From the NCBI GenBank assembly GCA_964016885.1, contig CAXHJY010000601.1, forward strand, positions 1 through 64,000: a stretch of DNA of 64,000 nucleotides. The letters are read 5' to 3'. Below are positions 1,409 through 64,000 of this stretch, one piece after another. The stretch's first letter is position 1. Every line of letters starts with the position of its first letter. Below the pieces are notes generated by a model, which saw only the letters and a list, made by a program, of their open reading frames with translations, did not search any database and had not been told where the DNA came from. The position numbers were made by a program, and so were the translations under genes. The stretch comes from Eledone cirrhosa (lineage: Eukaryota).

Positions 1409-2054
1409 TTTAAGGGAGCATTTGTTAACCTTTTTAGCATTGTTTTGTGAAAAAGGTTACAAACTTTTTCTGGTTTCTTTCATATATTCTCAAATCATCT
1501 ATTGAAATAAATGCTCTTTTGTGAACTGTATTCAATGAGTTAGAAAACAAGATTTTGATATTTCATATGTAAATCAGCAATCTGGGTGATGTAAGAAATA
1601 TTTCACATTATTTTTGAGGAAGCCAATAATTTATTTGCATACTACATACTGTACATTTTTGAAGATATATCAGACATTTCAAAAATGATATTAATAAGGT
1701 ATAATACATTTAGAAAAGAAACAACAGATTCAAAATTAGTTAGAAGGAAAAAAAGAGAAGAGACATGGGTACATATTTACCCCTTATAAAACGAAATTTT
1801 GAAACAAGACAAGACACAATGTTGCATATGATAGCAAGGCTAAGGCTCAGAAATAGTCAAGTACTCTCATGACTATCACCTGATACTTCAGTAAGGCAAG
1901 TCCTTAACAATGACAAAAAAACCTCATTGGCAGCAGCCAAAAAGGTGATAGGTGTCACACACCCCAATCAATCTCTCATCATTGTTTTAGCAAATTTGTA
2001 TCTACTTTCCTGTTTCTTGAGTATACACTATTTCATCTGCATTAATGTATAATT

Positions 2055-2143
2055 TATAATACAACCATACACTACTACCCCAAGTATCAAGTATTCTGTT
2101 GAATAATAGTCTAACCAGTTTCAAACTGATTCCATCCTGATTT
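2055..2143 (+). mobile_element. 3' tail of PLE-derived non-coding element
   Basis: CTACTACCCCAAGTATCAAGTATT...CTAACCAGTTT...ATCCTGATT matches 54300-54382 (+) and 12541-12630 (-); ends at a (TA)n tract. Confidence 0.6.
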
Positions 2144-7786: not shown

Positions 7787-7788
<2 letters not shown>

Positions 7789-7938
7789 TTCAAGGAGACA
7801 ACAAACAAAGGTACAAAAAGTCTTAATAGTTTCATGCTTTATATGAAAAAGGGGAAAGAAAGTTCAACATGTCATGTGTTAGCCCTTCTTCAGGAGTACA
7901 AAATTAGAGATAGGATCAGGAACGAAATACAGAAAAGA

Positions 7939-7989: not shown

Positions 7990-7993
<4 letters not shown>

Positions 7994-8182
7994 AAAATGT
8001 TTGACCCCAACAGCAGAGCTCAAGCCATTTCGACGGCTATTTCTGAACTCAGAAATAGCCGTCGAAATGGCTTGGGCTCTGTCATCGAGGTCAAACATTT
8101 TCCTATTACCCACTCTACTACCCTAAGTATTGAGTACTCTGGTGCGTTATGGTCCATCTGGTTCCTCACCACTCTTCCTTTG

Positions 8183-8185
<3 letters not shown>
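7990..8185 (+). mobile_element. fold-back element (family A): 116-bp palindrome plus tail
   Basis: 7990-8046 is the near-perfect reverse complement of 8049-8105; tail to 8185; homologous to 53091-53300; embedded in (TA)n. Confidence 0.85.
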
Positions 8186-8627: not shown

Positions 8628-8862
8628 TGAGTTCAAATCCCGTCGAGGTTAACTTTGCTTTTCAGCCATACAGGGTCGATAAAATAAAGTACCAGTAATG
8701 CACTGGGTAATTGCTGGCCTTGTGCCTAAAGTAGAAACAATTATTATTATTATTATTATTATTTAGGTTGACTTTGCCTTTCATCCTTACGGGGTCGATA
8801 AAATAAAGTACCAGTAATACACTGGATAATTGCTGGCCTTGTGCCTAAAGTAGAAACAATTA
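8628..8862 (+). mobile_element. two tandem 5'-truncated SINE copies
   Basis: GAGTTCAAATCCC...GTCGATAAAATAAAGTACCAGT...GTAGAAACAA followed by (TTA)n; 3' part repeated. Confidence 0.85.
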
Positions 8863-12189: not shown

Positions 12190-12300
12190 AGTGCAAGGGT
12201 ACAATAAACAGAGGTAGAAAAAGTCTTATTAGTTTCACACTTTATATTGGAAAGAGGAAAGAAAGTTATATGTGTTGGGCTTAAGCCTTTCTTCAGGAAT
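12190..12300 (-). mobile_element. PLE-derived element family B
   Basis: Homologous to 7787-7940 and 53328-53492. Confidence 0.6.
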
Positions 12301-12509
12301 ATATATCATCATCATATATATATGCTAAAATAGCAACCGAAGGCAAATTCTTTTTCTGTCTTATAAGTGCATTCACCTTATTTTATAAGCTATCTTTATA
12401 GCATTTCTGTGCTTGAGCACTTTCTTTATACTTATATATATATACATATATTCTCAATGCTTCAAAAAAAAATATATATATATATATCCAAACCCATGCT
12501 AGCGTGGAA

Positions 12510-12542: not shown

Positions 12543-12665
12543 CAGGATAGAAGCAGTTTGAAATTAATTAGACCATTACTCAACAGAGTACTTGATACTT
12601 GGGGTAGTAGAGTACGGTTATATCATAAAGAGTTGAAACCTGACGGCTGAGCTCCTGCCATTTTA
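12541..12665 (-). mobile_element. family A-related PLE-derived tail
   Basis: Reverse complement reads GAGCTCAGCCGTCAGG...CTACTACCCCAAGTATCAAGTAC, matching 54267-54382. Confidence 0.65.
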
Positions 12666-12701
12666 AAAATTAGCTCCAGGCTCTCTCTCTCACTCTACAT
12701 T

Positions 12702-23525: not shown

Positions 23526-23689
23526 AGAGGGTCGGACGTCATACTTTTCACCAAAGAGTTACGGCCCTTTATGTTCTGAGTTCAAATCCCGCCGAGGTTA
23601 ACTTTGCCTTTCATCCTTACGGGGTCGATAAAATAAAGTACCAGTAATACACTGAGATAATTGCTGCCCTTGTGCCAAAAGTAGAAACA

Positions 23690-27407: not shown

Positions 27408-27445
27408 GGTCTTAACGTTTCGGACGATAGTCCTTCATCAGAAGA
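27408..27445 (-). ncRNA. minimal type I hammerhead ribozyme
   Basis: Minus strand TCTT-CTGATGA-A-GGAC TATC GTCC-GAAA-CG-TT-AAGA: 4-bp stem I, 4-bp stem II, self-complementary AACGTT stem III. Confidence 0.8.
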
Positions 27446-29576: not shown

Positions 29577-30848
29577 CAATTATATACATATCTGTATACA
29601 TAAATTCATGCATACATACATATATATATTTATATATAGAGTGGGCTATTGTCGGAATTGTTTGCACATTCGACAACTTCTTTTGTGTTATTAATATTGG
29701 CTCCTTGCAGTCTCTAACTGAAGCCTACTTGGATAGTAAACTGAATTGATCTCCCAGTTTAACATCATCACCTGGTCCTTGAGTGCATTTAGCAGAGTTC
29801 ATTTTGTTATTAGTTTTCAGGCCAGGTTCTTGATTTAATGAGTTTTTAGTATATATATAGTAAAACACACTCACAGTCAGTGTGTTTTACTATAGATTTC
29901 TGGCAATATGTTTCAACACACGATTTCATATAAAAAACTTTGCAAAAGAAATATATATATATATATACATATATGATGTCGTCAAGTATGAAATTTGTAG
30001 AAATTTGTAGACAAAAACAAATTTCTACACATTTCATACTTCACGACCCAATATATATATACATATATCTATACATATATATATATATACAAACCTTAGA
30101 CATTTTATGATGACCATGATTGTGACTATGATGATAATGATAAGAAGAAACAGGTGTGTATGATAGTGAGGATGATGCCATGTTGATGATAACAAATATG
30201 GTGGTGATAGTAAAAGAATTGATGAGGATAATGGTGATGAAAACTGACTATATCAATGATGCAGATGATAATAATGGTTATGATTATACCGATGATGCGA
30301 CAACATATATTTATGTATATATGCATGAATATGTATGTGTATTTATGCATGGGAATATATATGTGTGTGATATATTTGATATTATTTCTATTCAATCTTA
30401 CTCCCTTCGCATGATTAAAGCAAATTTCATTTGGCTTTCGGATGACACATTTTATAACTACTTAGTAACCATACTTAGTACCATATTATTATTATTATTG
30501 ATACTCTTGTGGCTTTATCTCTAAATTATATGAAAAAATAATTCTTCTCCTTATTTACTTACACTTCTCTACATTTCAAGTAGGATATATATATTTATAT
30601 ATATATATATATCATCATCATCATCATCATCATCATCACTGTTTAAAATTTATTTTCCAGTGTTGATGATAATGATTATGATGATGATATATATTGATCT
30701 ATTAAACATACCAGGGAAAAGTATTCAGAACCTCTTACAAGTTGCAGATGCATCCAGCTATGAGTAGGATATATATAATATATATATATAGTGATATTCA
30801 TATATACCACCACAGAATCACAATAAATGCAGATATATATATACATAC

Positions 30849-40692: not shown

Positions 40693-40758
40693 CAAATATT
40701 TATCATAAGTACAGATTAAACTTTAAGCAAAGAATTGCTTAAACTTTAAACTGTACTT

Positions 40759-40807
<49 letters not shown>

Positions 40808-41008
40808 ATGTATATAGTAGTAATAGTGTATATATATATATATATATTATAAGTACAGTTTAAAGTTTAAGCAATTCTTTGCTTAAAGTTTAATCTGTAC
40901 TTATGATAAATATTTGCTCTACTGGTTTTTATATATACTTTTTATATATATATATGTAATCCTTATGGAGCCCTCTTCAGATTTTAGTCTTCACATTTAT
41001 TATTACTA
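40693..41008. mobile_element. family C element with inverted duplication around a (TA)n/(TG)n tract
   Basis: 40693-40762 is the reverse complement of 40848-40916; the remainder matches 42781-42890, 45790-45935 and 60238-60400. Confidence 0.7.
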
Positions 41009-41017
41009 TATATATAT

Positions 41018-41190
41018 ATATTTAATATAGAAATGGGTTCTACAGCACTAGAACTGTTTCATTCGGAGGAAATCTTCAAGAAAGCAGTTCTAGTCCTGTA
41101 GAAGCCATTTCTATATTAAATATTTATACTCTGCTATGTATTGAGTACCTTACTTACTGCGGTTACCTACAATTGAACCTGGGATAAACA
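41018..41190. mobile_element. fold-back element: about 105-bp palindrome plus tail
   Basis: Arms 41018-41060 and 41080-41123; centre on the minus strand reads TTGAAGA-TTTC CTCC GAAT-GAAACAGTT; tail contains GTATTGAGTAC. Confidence 0.75.
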
Positions 41191-42561: not shown

Positions 42562-42596
42562 CAAGTAAGTATGTTTTGATATATATATATATAGTA

Positions 42597-42773
42597 ATTG
42601 TTTCTACTTTAGGCACAAGGCCAGCAATTACCCAGTGCATTACTGGTACTTTATTTTATCGACCCCGTAAGGATGAAAGGCAAAGTCAACCTCGGCGGGA
42701 TTTGAACTCAGATCGTAAAGGGACGTAACTATGCTGGAAAGCATGGCGTCCGACCCTCTACCGATACTGCCAA
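42597..42773 (-). mobile_element. SINE, young
   Basis: Near-identical to 59089-59269; CpGs retained. Confidence 0.93.
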
Positions 42774-42888
42774 ATATATATAGTAATAATAATAAATTTG
42801 AAGACTAAAATCCAAAGAGGATCAGAAGATCCCATTAAGGGTGAAAGCACCGATTCTTTGCTTAAACTTTAATCTGTTATTTTAATAA

Positions 42889-43888: not shown

Positions 43889-45474
43889 TCAAGTATATTT
43901 TATTAAGGATAAAGGAATTCAGCACATGAAACTGGTTTAATTATTAAAAAATTAAATATAGTGAGAATTCACAAAAATTATAAAATTATATTTTCTATGT
44001 AGAGTCAGATACCATTCTTGAAAACTTATAAAAAATGTTGTATGGGTAGCAAATAGTTATTTGTTTTATACATATCCAAATTATTTACCTTATTTACAAA
44101 CACATATATATTCTCAATTACAGACACTCATTTAACAAGATAATATCCTATATACATATATTTATAAACACATACACATATTTCCTCACTTACTGAAGCA
44201 CACTAATTTTTCTGGAAGTATAAGAATTCCCCTACTGCCTCACTAATCCTTATATAATCCTCACCTTTATAAACTAATGCAGCCAACACAAGCACATGAT
44301 GCATTCAGCTAGCTACACATCCAAAAGAAGTAAATCCTAAGAACTTTGATTCTCTGAACAATAAGAATATCCTATCCACTATCCCTCAGACTCTTCTAAC
44401 TGGTAAATTCCAACAAAGATATAAACACCTTCACTAAGAATGCACTCTTTGTCTAAAGAAGTTCTTATGTAATCTTGTCAATAATAATTATATTATTCTA
44501 TGCTTCAACTATGCATGAGGTGGTATATACTAAGACAATATGTATTATTTCCAATCCAGTACATCTGTTGTCCATACAATAGTACAAACATCTCCCTGCA
44601 CCATACCCAGGCATGTGTGCAAGAACAGAATATTAGCCATATGTTCCTTATGTTCTGTATATTTGTCAAACATAAATTTCTTTACTATATGTCTGAAAAT
44701 GGACTTATTTCTTTATTTCACAAAGATTCGCACAGTTAAGGAAAAGATATAAATGTTTACATGTATGCCCAAGCATGTATGATAGTTCACCCAACAATAG
44801 TGTGAAACCCCTAGTCCAAGTCAGGAGATCATATTAGGAGAAGGAAAACCCTAATGTAAAACCTGTGACTCAATGATGGCCAAGGATATTGAACTGATCT
44901 TCTTTTGGGATATCTGTCACCCTTCTTCAGGGAGTAGGTTTGATCCAGTGCAAGGTCATTCTTCACTTCAAAAAGCTTCAAGCACAGGCATCACTTGATC
45001 TAAACATCTTTCACATGTATGGCTGACCATAATAAAAGAAACAAATTTTTTTTTCATGCCATGCAACCCATGTGTCGCAGGTGATCAAGTGATGACACCA
45101 CTCTAAACCAAGATGTGGATTAAGAAAAAAAATTTATGACTTAAATTATTTTTATATTATTATTTGTATTATTGTTGTTATTAGTGGCCTTGCTCCTATT
45201 TTAGAAACACTTGCTACTGTTGCAATCATTAATATTATTATCACCACCACCATCATCATCATCACTATTATCATTGTTTGGGCATTGACTTGGCAAAACT
45301 GTTTGAGCCTCTGACAATTGCTTTACAGTATTTGTTTCAGCTCAATGAGTTCTGAGTTCAAATCACACTGAGGCTAACTTTTCCTTTCATCCTTTTGGGG
45401 TTGATGATATAGCATACTATAAAAAATCCCGGCATTGTAACTAAATTGGAAATCATCATTACTATTATTATTTC

Positions 45475-45650
45475 AGTATTGGTAGAGGGTCGGACACCAT
45501 GCTTTGCAGCATAAAGTTACGGCCCTTGCCATTCTGAGTTCAAATCCCGCCGAGGTTAACTTTGCTTTCATCCTTACGGGGTCGATAAAATGAAGTACCA
45601 GTAATGCACTGGGGTAATTGCTGGCCTTGTGCCAAAAGTAGAAACAATTA
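45475..45650 (+). mobile_element. SINE
   Basis: Conserved B box and body. Confidence 0.9.
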
Positions 45651-51336: not shown

Positions 51337-51340
<4 letters not shown>

Positions 51341-51604
51341 GAAGAAGTCAGTAAGTAATAATCCACCTCATTTATTAATTACATAATCACTATTATACGT
51401 ATTTCCATGGTAACTCTTACATAAATTACCATCGAAACACGTATAACACCGATTGAGTAATTAATAAATGACGTAAATTCTAACCTATTGACTTCTAACT
51501 CATTACTATACCTATACTCCAGAGTACACAAACCTACATGTATACGATGTCGAGTGCTCTAGTACACTAGTGTCGGTTGATTAACTAACTCAAAATATGC
51601 CGAG

Positions 51605-51607
<3 letters not shown>
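51337..51607 (+). mobile_element. older fold-back element: about 170-bp imperfect palindrome plus tail
   Basis: Arms 51337-51413 and 51426-51505; right arm starts TTACCATC-GAAA-CACG-TA; tail homologous to the reverse complement of 59644-59735; (TA)n on both sides. Confidence 0.75.
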
Positions 51608-51686
<79 letters not shown>

Positions 51687-53038: not shown

Positions 53039-53090
<52 letters not shown>

Positions 53091-53092
<2 letters not shown>

Positions 53093-53297
53093 GGAACGAG
53101 TAAGACCCCGACGGCTGAGCTCAAGCCGTTTCGACGGCTAATTCTGGACTAAAAATTTTTAGTCCAGAATTAGCCGTCGAAACGGCTTGAGCTCAGCCGT
53201 CGGGGTCTTACTCGTTCCTATTACCCACTCGACTACCCTAAGTATTGAGTACTTTGGTTCGTTATGGTCCACCTTGTTCCTTACCACATTTCCTTCG

Positions 53298-53300
<3 letters not shown>
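53091..53300 (+). mobile_element. fold-back element (family A): perfect 130-bp palindrome plus tail
   Basis: 53091-53155 is the exact reverse complement of 53156-53220 with no loop; tail to 53300; (TA)n flanks. Confidence 0.92.
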
Positions 53301-53327
<27 letters not shown>

Positions 53328-53331
<4 letters not shown>

Positions 53332-53492
53332 CAAGGAGACAACAAACAAAGGTACACAACGTCTTATTAGTTTCACGCTTTATATGGATAAGGGGAAAGA
53401 AAGTTTGATGTGTCAGGCTTTAGCCCTTCTTCAGGAATACAACATTAGAGTCAGGATCACTAAAGAGAAACAGAAATAAAGGAGTCCAAGTA
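53328..53492 (-). mobile_element. PLE-derived element family B with variant HHR core
   Basis: Minus strand CTGAAGA-A-GGGC TAAA GCCT-GACA-CATC at 53403-53439; (TA)n flanks. Confidence 0.72.
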
Positions 53493-53533: not shown

Positions 53534-54250
53534 ATAGAAATGGCTCAGTAGTTGCTATTTAAGGTATCTTAAAATGGAGTGGGAATACGAAGAAAGCAAG
53601 AACGGGGTGGGGGAAGTTTTCCTTATCAGTTGTCTACTGGGGGGTCTCGGATATGTCTACGCTTTAAAAACAATATAACTCGCCCCAGGGCGTCAATAAC
53701 TGGACAAGTTATTGGGAAAACGGAAGAAGGAGGGAAGGAAAGCAAAAAGGAAGAAAAGAGAAAACAGTAACAAAACAGCGAAAAACAACAACTAACCGAG
53801 CCATGTGCGAGCAACTATAGGTAGGAAATCCAAGACTACTCGATAAGAGAACTTAAATTCAAGACTGAGTGGTCGAGAGGAAAGGGACATACGTCCAATC
53901 GCCGCAGTTGTAAGTGAGAAGAGAACAGCTAAAGGGTCAGGTGAAGGGGTGAAAGTGAGGAGGGGGAGAAAGGGAGAGGAAGAAAGTGGGGTAAGAGTAG
54001 ATAGGGAGAAAGGGAGGGGAAGAAAGAGGGGTGAGAATAGAAAGTAGCGAAATAGGTAGGTAGAAGGGGAGAGAAGAATGGTCACAGCGAAAAACATGAT
54101 GAAATATATGGAGAATAGAAATGGCTGCGTAGTTGCTATTTAAGGTAACTTAAAATGCAGTAGGAATACGAAGAAAGCAAGAACAAGGGGAGGGGGGTTC
54201 CTCATCAGGTGTCTACAGGCGGTCTATGATATTTCTACGCTTTAAAGACA
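53531..54250 (-). mobile_element. non-coding element bounded by about 140-bp direct repeats
   Basis: 53531-53670 and 54112-54250 are diverged direct repeats; CTGATGA / CTGATAA on the minus strand in each; microsatellite flanks. Confidence 0.6.
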
Positions 54251-54266
54251 TATATATATTGCAAAG

Positions 54267-54500
54267 AGCTCAGCCGTCGGGGTCCGACTCTTTATTATAT
54301 AACCAAACTGTACTACCCCCAAGTATCGAGTTCTCTGGGGAATAATGGTCTAACCAGTTTGTAACTGAATCAATCCTGATTTATATATATATATATATAT
54401 ATATAACGAAGGAATTGTGGTAAGGAACCAGATGGACCATAACGCACCAAAGTACTCAATACTTAGAGTAGTAGAGTGGGTAATTGGAACAAGTATGACC
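54267..54500. mobile_element. two family A-type tails converging on one (TA)n tract
   Basis: 54267-54382 (+) and 54403-54500 (-, reverse complement of 53203-53300). Confidence 0.75.
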
Positions 54501-55129
54501 CACATATGTGTGTGTGTGTATGTGTGTGTGTATTAACACTCAAAATTTAATATAAACAAGCACCCACACACAACCCAAACACAACATTTTCACTGAGAAA
54601 ACATTTCACTTAACATAAACAAAAGCACACCATATTTTACGGGAATACCCACACAACATTATGCACATGTTAGTCCACAGAGGATGTCATCCCATTACTT
54701 TTGACAGCTATAAATAGATCACCGCATGCCTGTAACAACAAAAGCACAAAGCTTCAAACGAATTTCTTATTACAATCTTATGATGAAGGTATATTAGCGG
54801 CGAAATATTAGCATAGATAAATGACAGGTGACACACTAACATCTCCGTTGCCTTTTTTCCAAAATATACCGTCCATTTTGAATTGGTATAAAATACTACT
54901 TTATATATCACCAACATCATCGACGTCGTAGTCGTTTTTATGTCAACCTTTCCATCGTGACATGGGATGGATATGCCCTTCTTCACAATAAATATTTTAA
55001 TCGCATCGTACGACACGCAGGGATGCAGTATGTGTGTGTGGGGGGGGGGAGGTATGTGTGTGTGTGTGCGTGTGTGTGTGCTTATATATATAAGAATCAT
55101 TAAGTTAATAAAATAAAACCACACTTTTT

Positions 55130-55455: not shown

Positions 55456-56006
55456 AACTTTATGTAAATATTATGTGTCTTAAATTGTGGTTTTATGTTT
55501 CAAACGGGAATATTAAAATATATAGCATAGTCCTGGATGCAGTTACATGTAAAGGTGGTAATAGGACCAGCTCATATGTCAAATGTAAGTCTCGTTTCAA
55601 ACTAATCATTAAGCATCTCAGTAATCAGTGCTCAAGACAAAAGTTTTTAAATAAACATACAGTATTTTATCAAATATACTATACGTACATTCATATATAC
55701 ATCGCTATTTTAGTGAACCTATACTAATTTCTAATTTTTGCTGGGCCGGTACCGGCTCTGTATGTTAATGAGTTTAAACAGCTCATAAACATAATTGGAA
55801 TTCTATAAGAATCCAGCTTCTATAACTCTCGGCAGAAGCGAAGGGGTATGAAGTCTTGGCAACCACAAATGAGAAACAGTACTACCGTCGATTACTCCAC
55901 TTTGCTTTTGCCGAGACTAAGTATGTAACGTAGTCACTACTTCAAAATTCATAGCGAAAGGTTTTCAAAATGTTTTAAAATAAACATACAGTATATTATT
56001 AAACAG

Positions 56007-56193
56007 GGCGGTGGATTGGCAGTATCGGTAGAGGGTCGGACGCCATTCTTTGCAGCAAAGAGTTACGGTCCTTTATGGTCTGAGTTCAAATCCAGCCGAG
56101 GTTAACTTTGCCTTTCATCCTTACGGGGTCAATAAAATAACGTACCAGTAATACACTGGGATAATTGCTGGCCTTGTGCCAAAAGTAGAAACA
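56007..56193 (+). mobile_element. SINE, full length with 9-bp TSD
   Basis: A box TGGCAGTATCGG, B box GAGTTCAAATCC; ATTATTAAA at 55995-56003 and 56194-56202. Confidence 0.95.
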
Positions 56194-56939
56194 ATTATTA
56201 AATATACTATACGTACATTCATATTTCAGAGGATCAATACTAATTTCTAATTTTTTTTAGATTTTTACTGCCTATAAACATGCATTGTTTTACAAAAATA
56301 TCTTCCAGAAACGCAGCATACATCTTATAAACACAAGTTTAGGGTTTGGGTCACAGGCAAGTAATGGTTCACGTGTCGCATTACTTACCTGTGTCTCAGC
56401 TGGTCATATACATACATGCCAGTTTCCCCTCTGCACACCAACACATCACCCTTGTTGTCCAAAGTAAAGGCTAAGGCCGACCTCCATTTGGCACCAGTGA
56501 TGTCACAACTCATTATTTTGCAGTTATGTGGATTGGAGCAACGATAATTTAATATGTTGAACACTCGAACTAGTGACTTTACGATCGTGAGCCCAACATT
56601 AAGTCATGCCCTTTCACTTAAGTTATGGTTGATGAGGAGTGCGTTAGTGCACACAGTTGCAACATTTTAAATTGCGGATGAAAATCCCACTATCGTCTTG
56701 TCTACCTTTTGATAAAAACGAGGGCGAAGGAAGCGAGAAAGGGAAAGTTCTTAAGAGAAAGAGATCACTGGTTTGAGATATACAAGAGCAGACATAGATG
56801 CTATTTTGGTGTCTATTGTGTCTTCAGAGTAGAATTATAAACGTGTCCACAAGCGCTGAACTTATGTCGGTTCCGAAAACGACGAGTGCACTAGTTGTTT
56901 TACCAATAGAAAAGTTTGCTTGCGAAACTAATAGTAAAT

Positions 56940-57880: not shown

Positions 57881-58533
57881 TCAAAATCAAAACAAAGGAA
57901 TTCTTACATAACAACCTCAGTTGAGAAGCAGTAGCTATGAGCAAGGATTGCGTGGAGTCGGAGGAGGGCCCATGAATATTTCACACACTGCTTAATAAAA
58001 CCCATTTGATTTTGAAATGAACTCGCATCCCACATTATGTTATAATGCTGTGGCTACATAAAGCACCAAGATGTATCTTAAATCTGAAAACTATTCATTC
58101 CACTGACGTCACTCCCAACTATAATTTAACACACTATATATTTTTCCACTCTTTGTATTACAATAATCTACACTCTAGTTCCATCAAAACGAACAGACAT
58201 TCACACATGTACATGTGTGTGTGCGTGTGTGTAAATATTTGGTTTCTACATTGCGTGTGTACATATATATAAACGGAAAAAATGAAACGAAATTTCATTT
58301 CCCACTCTTAGTACGGCTGTTACATAAATATAAGTATGTATACGTACATACATATATGTATACAGCGTACAGTAGTATGTATATATATATACATACATGC
58401 ACACATATATATATGTACGTATGGATTCACCGAACATTTATTATAATGCTCGGTGTGTTTGTAAACAAACATCCCGTATTAAGCCATAGTGTCTAGCAAC
58501 CATCGTTGCTCGTTTGTTCAACACTGACAAAGG

Positions 58534-58578
58534 AACGCTGTACTAGTTTCAAGCTTATTAGCTATTGTCAGCAACGTT
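58534..58578 (-). ncRNA. hammerhead ribozyme (left-arm copy, core CTGACAA)
   Basis: Mirror of 58812-58856 with a G8-to-A change. Confidence 0.65.
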
Positions 58579-58811
58579 TACCTTCCTGCCGGATGATTGA
58601 ACGTCTGAAAGTATATACTTTCCTTATGGATATTAACGGCTGAGTAGCCCAATTTGCATATCGAGTGGATTAATCAGCCGCGTGCACCGAAAACGATAAA
58701 CGGTGCACCCCGCCGATTAACCCACTCGATATGCAAATTGGGCTACTCAGCCGTTAATATCCACAAGGAAAGTATATACTTTCAGACGTTCAATCATCCG
58801 GCAGGAAGGTA

Positions 58812-58856
58812 AACGTTGCTGACGATAGCTAATAAGCTTGAAACTAGTACAGCGTT
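58812..58856 (+). ncRNA. minimal type I hammerhead ribozyme
   Basis: AACGTTG-CTGACGA-T AGCT AATA AGCT T-GAAA-CTAG-TA-CAGCGTT: 7-bp stem I, palindromic ACTAGT stem III, GUA site. Confidence 0.82.
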
Positions 58857-59088
58857 CCTTTGTCAGTGTTGAACAAATGAGCAACGATGCTTGCTAGACA
58901 CTACGGCTTAATACGGGATGTTTGTTTACAAATACACAGAGCATTATAATAAATGTTCGGTGAATCCATACGTACATTTATATATGTGTGCATGTATGTA
59001 TATATATATACATACTACTGTACGTCTGTATACATATATGTATGTACGTATACATACTTGTATATATATATATATACAATATATTAAT

Positions 59089-59269
59089 TGTCTCTACTTT
59101 AGGCACAAGGCCAGCAGTTAACCAGTGCATTACTGGTACTTTATTTTATCGACCCCGTAAGGATGAAAGGCAAAGTCAACCTCGGCGGGATTTGAACTCA
59201 GATCGTAAAGGGACGTAATTATGCTGGAAAGCATGGCGTCCGACCCTCTACTGATACTGCCAATCCACC
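59089..59269 (-). mobile_element. SINE, full length with 8-bp TSD
   Basis: ATATTAAT at 59081-59088 and 59270-59277; intact A and B boxes. Confidence 0.93.
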
Positions 59270-59329
59270 ATATTAATAAATGGAAACTATATTTATAAAA
59301 CCATAATTATTTTATTATATATATTTCAA

Positions 59330-59513
59330 GGCGGTGAATTGGCAGTATCGGTAGAGGGCTGGACGCCATGCTTTCTAGCACAGTTTCGTCCCTTTACGGT
59401 CTGAGTTCAAATCCCGCCGAGGTTAACTTTGCCTTTCATCCTTACGGGGTCGATAAAATAAAGTACCAGTAATGCACTGGGTAATTGCTGGCCTTGTGCC
59501 AAAAGGAGAAACA
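59330..59513 (+). mobile_element. SINE, full length with about 17-bp TSD
   Basis: ATTATATATATTTCAAG(G) at 59314 and 59514; intact A and B boxes. Confidence 0.95.
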
Positions 59514-59608
59514 ATTATATATATTTCAAGGGCAACCAAGGTAAATTATGGTGCGCTTTCATCAGATAAAATAAATATGTTGAAACCCAACAAATTAAAT
59601 ATAACCTC

Positions 59609-59647
<39 letters not shown>

Positions 59648-59794
59648 GAGTATATGTTGGTTATTTACCGACACCTCAGTATGGAGATTGGAGCACTCGA
59701 CGAAGTGCGCAGGTTGGTTTGGTTACTCCGGATTAATGTAAAATAAAATAGATAAGTCAAATATTTAAAATTTGGCTTCGTTTATTAAAGGTGT

Positions 59795-59849
59795 ACTGCT
59801 ATATATATTTTGGTTACAGCCATCCTTGGCTGTGACCTCTTCAGGCAGT
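59795..59849 (-). ncRNA. hammerhead ribozyme (left-arm copy, GAAA changed to AAAA)
   Basis: Minus strand ACTGC-CTGAAGA-GGTCACAGCCA AGGA TGGCTGTAACC-AAAA-TATATA-TA-GCAGT. Confidence 0.65.
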
Positions 59850-60065
59850 CCGAATTGGTGTGGTAGAGACAGGTACGCATGTTGTTGAGGTGTTTAACTC
59901 CGCCAATCCTCCGATATGCCCACTTCCTGGTCGGTTGTTATTTCTCTGAGGAACAGGAATCATATCAGAGAAATAACAACCCGACCAGGAAGTGGGCATA
60001 TCGGAGTCTTGACGGAGTTAAACACCTCAACAACATGCGTACCTGTCTCTACCACACCAATTCGG

Positions 60066-60120
60066 ACTGCCTGAAGAAGTCACAGCCAAAGATGGCTGTC
60101 ACCGAAATATATATAGCAGT
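60066..60120 (+). ncRNA. type I hammerhead ribozyme
   Basis: ACTGC-CTGAAGA-AGTCACAGCCA AAGA TGGCTGTCACC-GAAA-TATATA-TA-GCAGT: 5-bp stem I, long stem II, AUA site, AATAAA just downstream. Confidence 0.82.
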
Positions 60121-60169
60121 ACACCTTTAATAAACGAAGCCACATTTTAAATATTTGAGTTATCTATTT

Positions 60170-60237
<68 letters not shown>

Positions 60238-62521: not shown

Positions 62522-64000
62522 ATATAACTGTACATCAAACCTGTACACTATGGATTGTACTACATACAACAACTTCATTCGGAAAGAATTACATAAAAAA
62601 TATAGAAAAACGAGTGAAGTAACCCTTAAGCACATCAATGATGAGGCATGCGAAATAGTGAAAAATCTCGGAATCGAAGATAGGACAGGACCACTCTTAC
62701 CGGCGGTACCCACCTTCAATCTTAAGGACCACAAGGTAAACTTTGATAATGACCCTAAAATTAGATTAATCTGCCCCTCTAAATCAGATATAGGTAAAAA
62801 TAAGCAAATATATCTTAGATAGAATCATCCCCCAAATTAAGGCTAAGGTTAACATTAAACTCTGGGGGAAGACCCAAGAAGCAATAAGATGGTTTAATAG
62901 CATTAGCAATAAGAATAAATCTAAGTTTATCCAGTTTGATATCGATGAATATTACTCATCGATACCACCTGAAACTTTGAATAGAGCCATTAAGTTTGCT
63001 AAGGATAACTCTGACCTTACAAACGATGAAATTAAGATTATATTAGAAGCTAGGAAAACTATAGTCAAATTTGAGAACAGTTATTGGGTACATAAAGATA
63101 GACCCTCTAACTTTGACATAACAATGGGCTCTAACGATTCGGCGGAAATAACTGATATTGTGGGGTTATTTATCGCCTTTAGACTCCAGGAAAAATTCAG
63201 CAATCTCCACGGCGGAATATACCGCGACGATGTTCTCCTCCTAGCTAAAAACCTTAATAACCAAAAACTAGAAAAACTACGCAAAGATATAAGAAAACTA
63301 CTACTCGAAATAGGACTAACTATAACATATGAATACAACCTTAAAGTAGTTAACTTCCTGGATGTCACACTCAATTTAAACTCTGGTTTGATTAAACCGT
63401 TTCATAAATTGAATGAAAATCTCAAATACGTAAATGTTGGGTCTAACCACCCCATCTCTATAATTAAATCTATCCCTAAAAATATTTCCCTTAGAATCTC
63501 GGGTCTATCTTCTAACATACAAGTATTTAAGGAACACGCCGAGTACTACGATAACGCCCTTAGTAAAGCAGGCTACCTCAACAAAATAGAGTACATAGAT
63601 GGGAACAATCAAAACACCCAAAATAAATCCCACATAGGTAGATATAATAACACAACACCAAACCACACTTACTACCATAGTATGCACACCAGTAAACCAA
63701 CAAACAAAACTAATAGAAAGCGATGCAAAGAGTACTTATGGTATAACCCCGAATACAATAAAACACCAGAGCCAAAGAAATGTAACAACTTTAGCAGAAA
63801 AAGCTTGGACGCTCAGGGATAGCGATCAAAAGTTTACCCTAAAATGGGAGAAATTAGCTAAAACCCAAAGCTTTTCCAGGAGCCAAAATCTCTGCAAATT
63901 GTGTAATCTTGAGATTTATTACATAATCACACACAAGAAGAAACTGCTGAATAACAGAATTGAACGAACATTATTCTGCCGTCACAGAACTAAAACCCTT
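62522..64000 (+). mobile_element. Penelope-like retroelement, Naiad-type, 5'-truncated, runs off the window
   Basis: Motifs LKDHKx[39 protein letters not shown] (63220-63231), FLDVTLNL, SNHP, LWYNP, CKLC...LLN...CRH; inserted at (TA)n. Confidence 0.9.
62532..64000 (+). pseudogene. PLE RT plus partial GIY-YIG endonuclease ORF, disrupted
   Basis: Frame 3 at 62532-62798; +1 slip in the A5 run 62796-62800; frame 1 open 62800-63762; jump to frame 2 at about 63761 (KHQSQRNVTTLAEKAW...CRH) with the N-terminal GIY-YIG half missing. Confidence 0.85.

Follow-up and report, generated by a model that had tools for sequence, protein, structure and literature searches.

A perfect palindrome in an insertion with a one-sided tail

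In the window, by which we mean the whole 64,000-nucleotide stretch of DNA that was analysed, an insertion that we call copy A is flanked on both sides by (TA)n runs, the left one (53055-53089) being the target microsatellite and the right one occupying 53300-53328. Positions 53091-53220 form a perfect inverted repeat of 65+65 bp (65/65) with zero loop, as the original prediction had claimed, and the folding of this 130-bp palindrome (z = -20.5) was matched by 0 of 200 shuffles. The short inverted arm (53091-53155, minus strand) meets the direct one at an axis between 53155 and 53156, and its outer end, homologous to 53220, is an internal end found family-wide. Reading away from the axis on the plus strand, one passes the loop and 3' strand of a hairpin at the hammerhead stem II position (53156-53178), a hammerhead 3' half (53179-53201), a presumed stem I 3' strand with a spacer (53202-53220) and a 79-nt tail (53221-53299) that lies beyond the palindrome on the right side only and carries a CTC...GAGYAC motif at 53228-53252. 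In the table of reads and contigs, copies vary strongly at positions 53208, 53213 and 53214.

Each arm holds GAAA at 23 nt from the axis (53179-82 in the direct arm), then a 6-bp stem III closing on a 7-nt loop and a GUC triplet, which in the direct arm ends at C53201, and a motif scan found CTGANGA in neither arm; the claimed combination of GAAA with an absent CUGANGA box holds. These motifs make up a type I hammerhead's 3' half, GAAA, stem III and UH site all being present, and because the inverted copy replaces the 5' core box, copy A has no active ribozyme in cis. Among the best 150 of 251 Rfam matches listed there was no hammerhead family and none at gathering score, those listed being microsatellite-driven miRNA matches below that score.

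Inverted copies elsewhere in the window

Self-comparison of the window revealed 10 non-microsatellite inverted loci, of which six are head-to-head with hammerhead sequence in the arms (copies A to F) and the remaining four were viewed by eye. Four of the six turn at the stem II position (A at 53091, B at 7990, C at 41022 and D at 51337), and the other two, E and F, have their axes in different hairpins, whose loops measure 15 or 11 nt. A short inverted arm and a one-sided tail are common to A, B, C, D and E.

Copy B (7990-8184, plus strand) belongs to the same family as A, which has 6 copies in the window by self-comparison, and shares its arm end and its 79-nt tail. Its junction is slightly asymmetric, the short arm reaching the equivalent of 53161-62 and the long arm starting at that of 53164-65, with only about 1 nt of pairing. 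Across 56 positions, the two arms of B share 8 departures from A and disagree with one another at 6, every one a transition; because the eight are shared, each event would have built its arms anew on a single template, or a single master. Copy C (41022-41188, plus strand) is of another family and has a GUA triplet in its left arm, and copy D (51337-51610, plus strand) is decayed. The original prediction had placed the geometry of 53091 also at 7990, 41018 and 51337, and GAAA indeed lies 16, 9-10 and 14 nt from the centres of B, C and D, whose better arms have a stem III of 5, 5 and 4 bp and in which a motif scan found no CTGANGA; however, only A is perfect and loopless (arm likeness is 77-88% in the others) and only 7990 is of the same family. 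Such a motif (4-6 bp stem III) occurs within 30 nt of 1.1-3.7% of window positions, a figure that is a guide and not a p-value because the four loci were picked for the motif, and A and B are not independent since they belong to one family.

Copies E and F are counter-examples, and neither of these head-to-head inversions (59739-60176 and 58332-59059) figured in the original prediction. Copy E (59643-60176, tail on the left) has 196-nt arms with CTGAAGA in both and a complete hammerhead in the right arm, and its inversion at 59739-60176 has its axis 113 nt upstream of CTGAAGA. Copy F (58332-59059) has arms of about 360 nt and a complete Hydra-type hammerhead with CTGACGA at 58819, and its axis lies 124 nt upstream of CTGANGA. 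A strict hammerhead scan misses both, a relaxed scan returned F and two others, and E was reached via folding and a half-motif scan. The arms of F run symmetrically into the simple-repeat flank, and F, an inverted SINE-like pair (59078-59525) and E make three large inverted repeats in a row across 58332-60176.

Non-inverted copies and neighbouring repeats

One non-inverted copy of the A family (54406-54501, minus strand) is cut short no more than 1-2 nt from the predicted cleavage site; this one instance has a 5' end compatible with run-off on cleaved RNA. Non-inverted subfamily copies are truncated in the stem III loop (54258-54378, plus strand) or end just 5' of a decayed GAAA (12543-12690, minus strand), and a tail-only subfamily copy lies at 2053-2139 (minus strand).

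A second family (7788-7935, 12191-12301 and 53329-53476) has CTGAAGA on the minus strand with a decayed or variant GAAA box, and all three of its copies lie 30-242 bp from an A-family copy, in no fixed order, a proximity that probably reflects shared (TA)n hotspots. Two complete minimal hammerheads of one non-inverted family lie at 27441 and 29167 (minus strand), where shuffled windows give 0-1 each. An inverted repeat in tail-to-tail orientation at 40693-41005 (67 bp, 100%) spans a TA/TG microsatellite with each arm a hairpin, and is related to copies at 42783, 45790 and 60239. The repeat pair at 53534-53677 and 54115-54256 has CTGATGA on the minus strand in one copy, without a following GAAA box. 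A very common SINE-like repeat, which may resemble an octopus SINE, is present in more than 15 copies (8629-8858, 23527-23689, 42595-42793, 45452-45650, 56004-56200 and others), and two small AT-rich inverted repeats beside (TA)n, at 29853-29897 and 29952-30073, have no evident hammerhead parts.

Identity of the element

Copy A is a 5'-truncated, partly inverted insertion of the 3' end of a Penelope-like element (PLE). It has the PLE (EN+) layout, in which the 5' end carries an inverted, 5'-truncated copy and a tail is confined to one end, and its family is dispersed and multi-copy with frequent 5' truncation. The element probably belongs to the Hydra clade, an assignment made because of the (TA)n target, hammerhead sequence near the 3' end, the tail motif and a Hydra-like reverse transcriptase (RT) remnant. 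A-family copies are inserted in (TA)n as Hydra-clade elements are, and hammerhead sequence near the 3' end is a 3' half in A to D and complete in E and F, a complete form having been seen in no A-family copy. Inspection by eye showed the CTC...GAGYAC motif in each tail from A to E, in a multiple alignment, and, in similar form, at the ends of published Hydra consensus sequences; the match between the tails of A and C is weak when taken alone (4 of 500 shuffles reach its score), and an exact motif search of the available PMC8557442 consensus files gave zero matches.

The RT remnant (62794-63822) is frameshifted and has motifs in common, by eye, with Hydra-1_Obim; it is not linked to the A family. 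It lies within a 5'-truncated, frameshifted Penelope-like RT at 62530-64000 that follows a (TA)n run and leaves the window at its edge. Searches of the remnant against Pfam and PDB returned nothing significant, and we rejected its assignment to Naiad, as published alignments point to Hydra. Copy A itself contains no ORF, neither the RT plus GIY-YIG frame of PLEs (EN+) nor one that could show the RT/EN traits of the Hydra clade (RWK and DKT, with CCHH lacking). Pattern scans for A-family relatives in prokaryote genomes gave 0 and 0 matches, those in metagenomes (1) and viral contigs (0 and 3) were matches of the pattern only and were judged to be chance, and none of 10 candidates for the window RT in viral contigs was confirmed.

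Two other identities were rejected. A MITE or fold-back DNA transposon does not agree with the one-sided tail, the variable centre and the truncated and asymmetric copies. Non-LTR retrozymes are head-to-tail tandem units with a complete hammerhead in each, according to the portion available of bioRxiv 10.64898/2026.07.22.740005, whereas the copies here are dispersed and head-to-head.

Ends and strand-switch joints in public reads and contigs

Four public runs of 11 (X1, X5, X6 and X9) were compared at 80% likeness with a reference made of the 144 bases from the axis (53156-53299). The A family matched 14658 of 16517967 X1 contigs and 22246 of 12467656 X9 reads, with 2 and 3 matching contigs in X5 and X6, which come from other organisms. 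(TA)n stands behind 53221 in 3547 X9 reads and 104 X1 contigs; the outer end of the short arm is fixed family-wide, and copies B, D and E end at homologous sites.

The hairpin at the axis had been read as stem II. For copy D this is very probably right, judging by its sequence: downstream of the ribozyme, D and E share homology (score 82 vs 43 for the best of 500 shuffles), and in the multiple alignment the GAAA of D lies within 4 nt of the GAAA in the complete hammerhead of E. For the A family we infer the same from sequence features. Loose ends of other A-family copies (72 X1 contigs and 1 X6 contig) hold an imperfect native hairpin 5' of 53158, and CTGANGA does not occur in the best 16 of 325 rows of loose ends listed, 30 letters each.

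All 10 strand-switch joints listed have one end at 53156-53174, in the 3' strand of stem II, and none has an inner end at 53175-53201, a clustering with p about 1e-4 under a uniform null over the callable 53156-53201 if the rows are independent. The reference began at the axis, where joint ends farther upstream could not be listed plainly, and the count leaves out four rows, of unstated kind, with letters between the two sides. The listed joints are asymmetric in that only the inverted arm extends as far as stem II, the direct copy lacking 25-95 nt that this arm holds. In three joints the shorter side measures 61, 55 and 48 letters, which in each case is exactly the span between the inner end and 53221, and by this geometry it is the short inverted arm that gets as far as stem II. 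The direct copy starts at 53198-53259, and within 53215-53225 in 6 of the 10 (p about 2e-4), a cluster that may be inflated by an alignment break of a divergent subfamily, also at 53215. Symmetric palindromes are absent from the joint table, presumably hidden by restriction cutting at 53168 and by contig assembly. An apparent truncation hotspot at 53168 (7218 read ends) was rejected, as the only AATT in the reference lies there and the library is restriction-based, with a presumed enzyme.

A proposed mechanism: two primings with stalling and fold-back at stem II

We consider it probable, if well short of certain, that copy A arose when a Hydra-type PLE was inserted through two primings combined with stalling or fold-back at stem II. 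The target would be (TA)n, both nicked strands of which would prime reverse transcription, one at the tail end (53299) and the other at an internal site (53220/53221); this second priming site fits because the short arm stops at a family-wide site and is followed there by (TA)n. Internally primed cDNA would tend to stall in the long stem II hairpin, and a stalled strand joined directly to the other, shorter cDNA would give an asymmetric inversion, while one that crossed the hairpin loop would fold back, or anneal to a second cDNA that had also reached the hairpin. Fill-in would then leave (TA)n, inverted arm, direct arm, tail and (TA)n in that order, CUGANGA never having been copied. In L1 twin priming, likewise, an inverted upstream segment is joined to a direct 3' segment starting near the second priming site. 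Stem II would act here as the first strong hairpin met and not via catalysis, hairpins farther upstream doing likewise in E and F.

The original prediction went further, in that ribozyme structure was to set the inversion point and a nascent cDNA was to snap back and prime itself. All 10 listed joints do have one end in stem II, but the axes of E and F stand far upstream of the core box, and because these two copies turn elsewhere, stem II is one of several axis-setting hairpins, a hotspot that is supported and not universal. The fold-back itself may be correct, though the internally primed strand is its likelier substrate: one snapped-back cDNA is insufficient unaided because the listed joints are asymmetric, and this asymmetric class favours two priming events. 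Self-priming is also not new, since it was already proposed at junction palindromes of Penelope elements (PMC3846280, in the part of that paper available to us).

The closest rival keeps the single strand: one tail-primed cDNA would cross the stem II loop, snap back and copy itself, with second-strand synthesis resolved 79 nt short and the asymmetric copies produced by later deletions of the centre. Palindromes can lose their centres by deletion, and the scheme predicts the exact order of parts and the identity of the arms; the native imperfect hairpin of the loose ends speaks for it too. Earlier proposals include self-priming where junctions are palindromic and resolution of the tail by an endonuclease (PMC3846280, PMC8557442, as far as available). 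We nevertheless regard it as unlikely, given that in the listed joints the inverted arm has sequence that the direct copy lacks, that 6 of 10 direct copies start near the short-arm end, that the B junction offers next to no pairing, and that a fixed end at 53221 needs a separate reason. Improbable to a greater degree is a family that never had CUGANGA, that is, a non-autonomous mini-element, palindromic by nature or with half a ribozyme, that is propagated whole while conversion keeps its arms alike. That no upstream core box was seen for the A family among the loose ends listed (the best 16 of 325) and that A and B have both ends in common would suit it, as would the half-core Naiad cases noted in the available text of PMC8557442, though these have the first half present; yet the centres of A and B differ, many copies are truncated or asymmetric, the related element E has a full ribozyme, and the perfect pairing of A contrasts with the imperfect native hairpin.

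The position of the axis might also be incidental, truncation being biased to short products and any inversion centre looking like a hairpin. E and F turning elsewhere, non-inverted copies ending at four other positions and copies of family G passing a short stem II without inverting all agree with this, but shorter products would favour inner ends at 53175-53201, which includes the near-palindromic stem III, and 0 of 10 fall there, and stem II is the turning point in 4 of the 6 window inversions, so that we hold mere coincidence to be very unlikely. Least credible of all, to the point of being almost negligible, is an assembly or library fold-back artefact, which would account for arms that are 100% identical at 53091 alone, across whose axis no read was placed; the same architecture occurs with diverged arms at B, C and D, and the limit of the palindrome coincides exactly with the arm end seen throughout the family, the flanks on its two sides being different.

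Extending the two-priming account beyond copy A, we suggest only tentatively that in Hydra-type PLEs at large stem II is a stop and fold-back site for internally primed cDNA, and that twin priming together with ribozyme structure, not cleavage, makes their inverted ends, including very many short perfect palindromes genome-wide that would be dsRNA substrates when transcribed. How PLEs form tandem or inverted ends, and what role their hammerheads play, is described as unresolved in the available part of PMC8557442. If the host is an octopus, as its repeats and the Hydra-like RT would suggest, palindromes of the A type could be among the many loci there that are reported to form near-perfect dsRNA at a high share (PMC5625713, available in part). 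Being short and highly abundant, the A family offers thousands of junctions that can be placed on a single RNA structure, and such mapping could separate twin priming from snap-back without bench work.

Comparison with known systems

The likeness to L1 twin priming lies in a direct 3' part that begins near the second priming site; here, unlike in L1, that site is fixed, insertion is into (TA)n and symmetric palindromes are among the outcomes. A literature search, which included PMC6431247 and few subscription papers, found in the texts available no PLE inversion axes at stem II and no PLE twin priming; truncated copies in inverted orientation, tails and self-priming at palindromic junctions are already in print for PLEs.

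According to the portions available of Craig et al. 2021 (PMC8557442), PLE insertions have an inverted 5'-truncated copy and a tail of 30-40 nt at one end, and the Hydra clade combines (TA)n insertion with a canonical hammerhead near the 3' end. The elements studied here resemble those of the Hydra clade in hammerhead sequence close to the 3' end, in GAAA preceded by C or T and in base pairing within stem III, and differ from them in that only the last 144 nt are present, without a linked ORF, in a tail of 79 vs 30-40 nt, and in a stem II of at least 23 nt per strand and a stem III of 6 bp, against 3-7 and 3-4 bp.

In Adineta vaga Penelope, palindromes at inverted junctions led to the proposal of self-priming (Arkhipova et al. 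2013, PMC3846280), and copy A shares with these elements the head-to-head inverted pLTR, the junction palindrome and the one-sided tail. In the part of that paper available to us, however, its authors do not connect the palindrome with a ribozyme stem, an antisense template is argued for, and no fixed-end asymmetric class is discussed. For Poseidon PAc, two RT start sites bounding the tail were found in vitro, as were nicking and extension on each of the two strands (Frangieh et al. 2024, PMC11167929). An AT-rich target and a hammerhead in the pLTR are shared with that element, which belongs to another clade and whose ribozyme catalysis is dispensable for insertion, inversions not being addressed in the sections available. 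Minimal hammerheads in PLE pLTRs, including opposite-strand pairs 100-700 bp apart, were described by Cervera and De la Pena 2014 (PMC4209133), and, on the part of that work available, they are matched here by the type I layout, the G10.1-C11.1-type C before GAAA and the palindromic stem III region, with E and F resembling the opposite-strand pairs; copy A departs from them in that an inverted copy of its own 3' half stands in place of the 5' core box.
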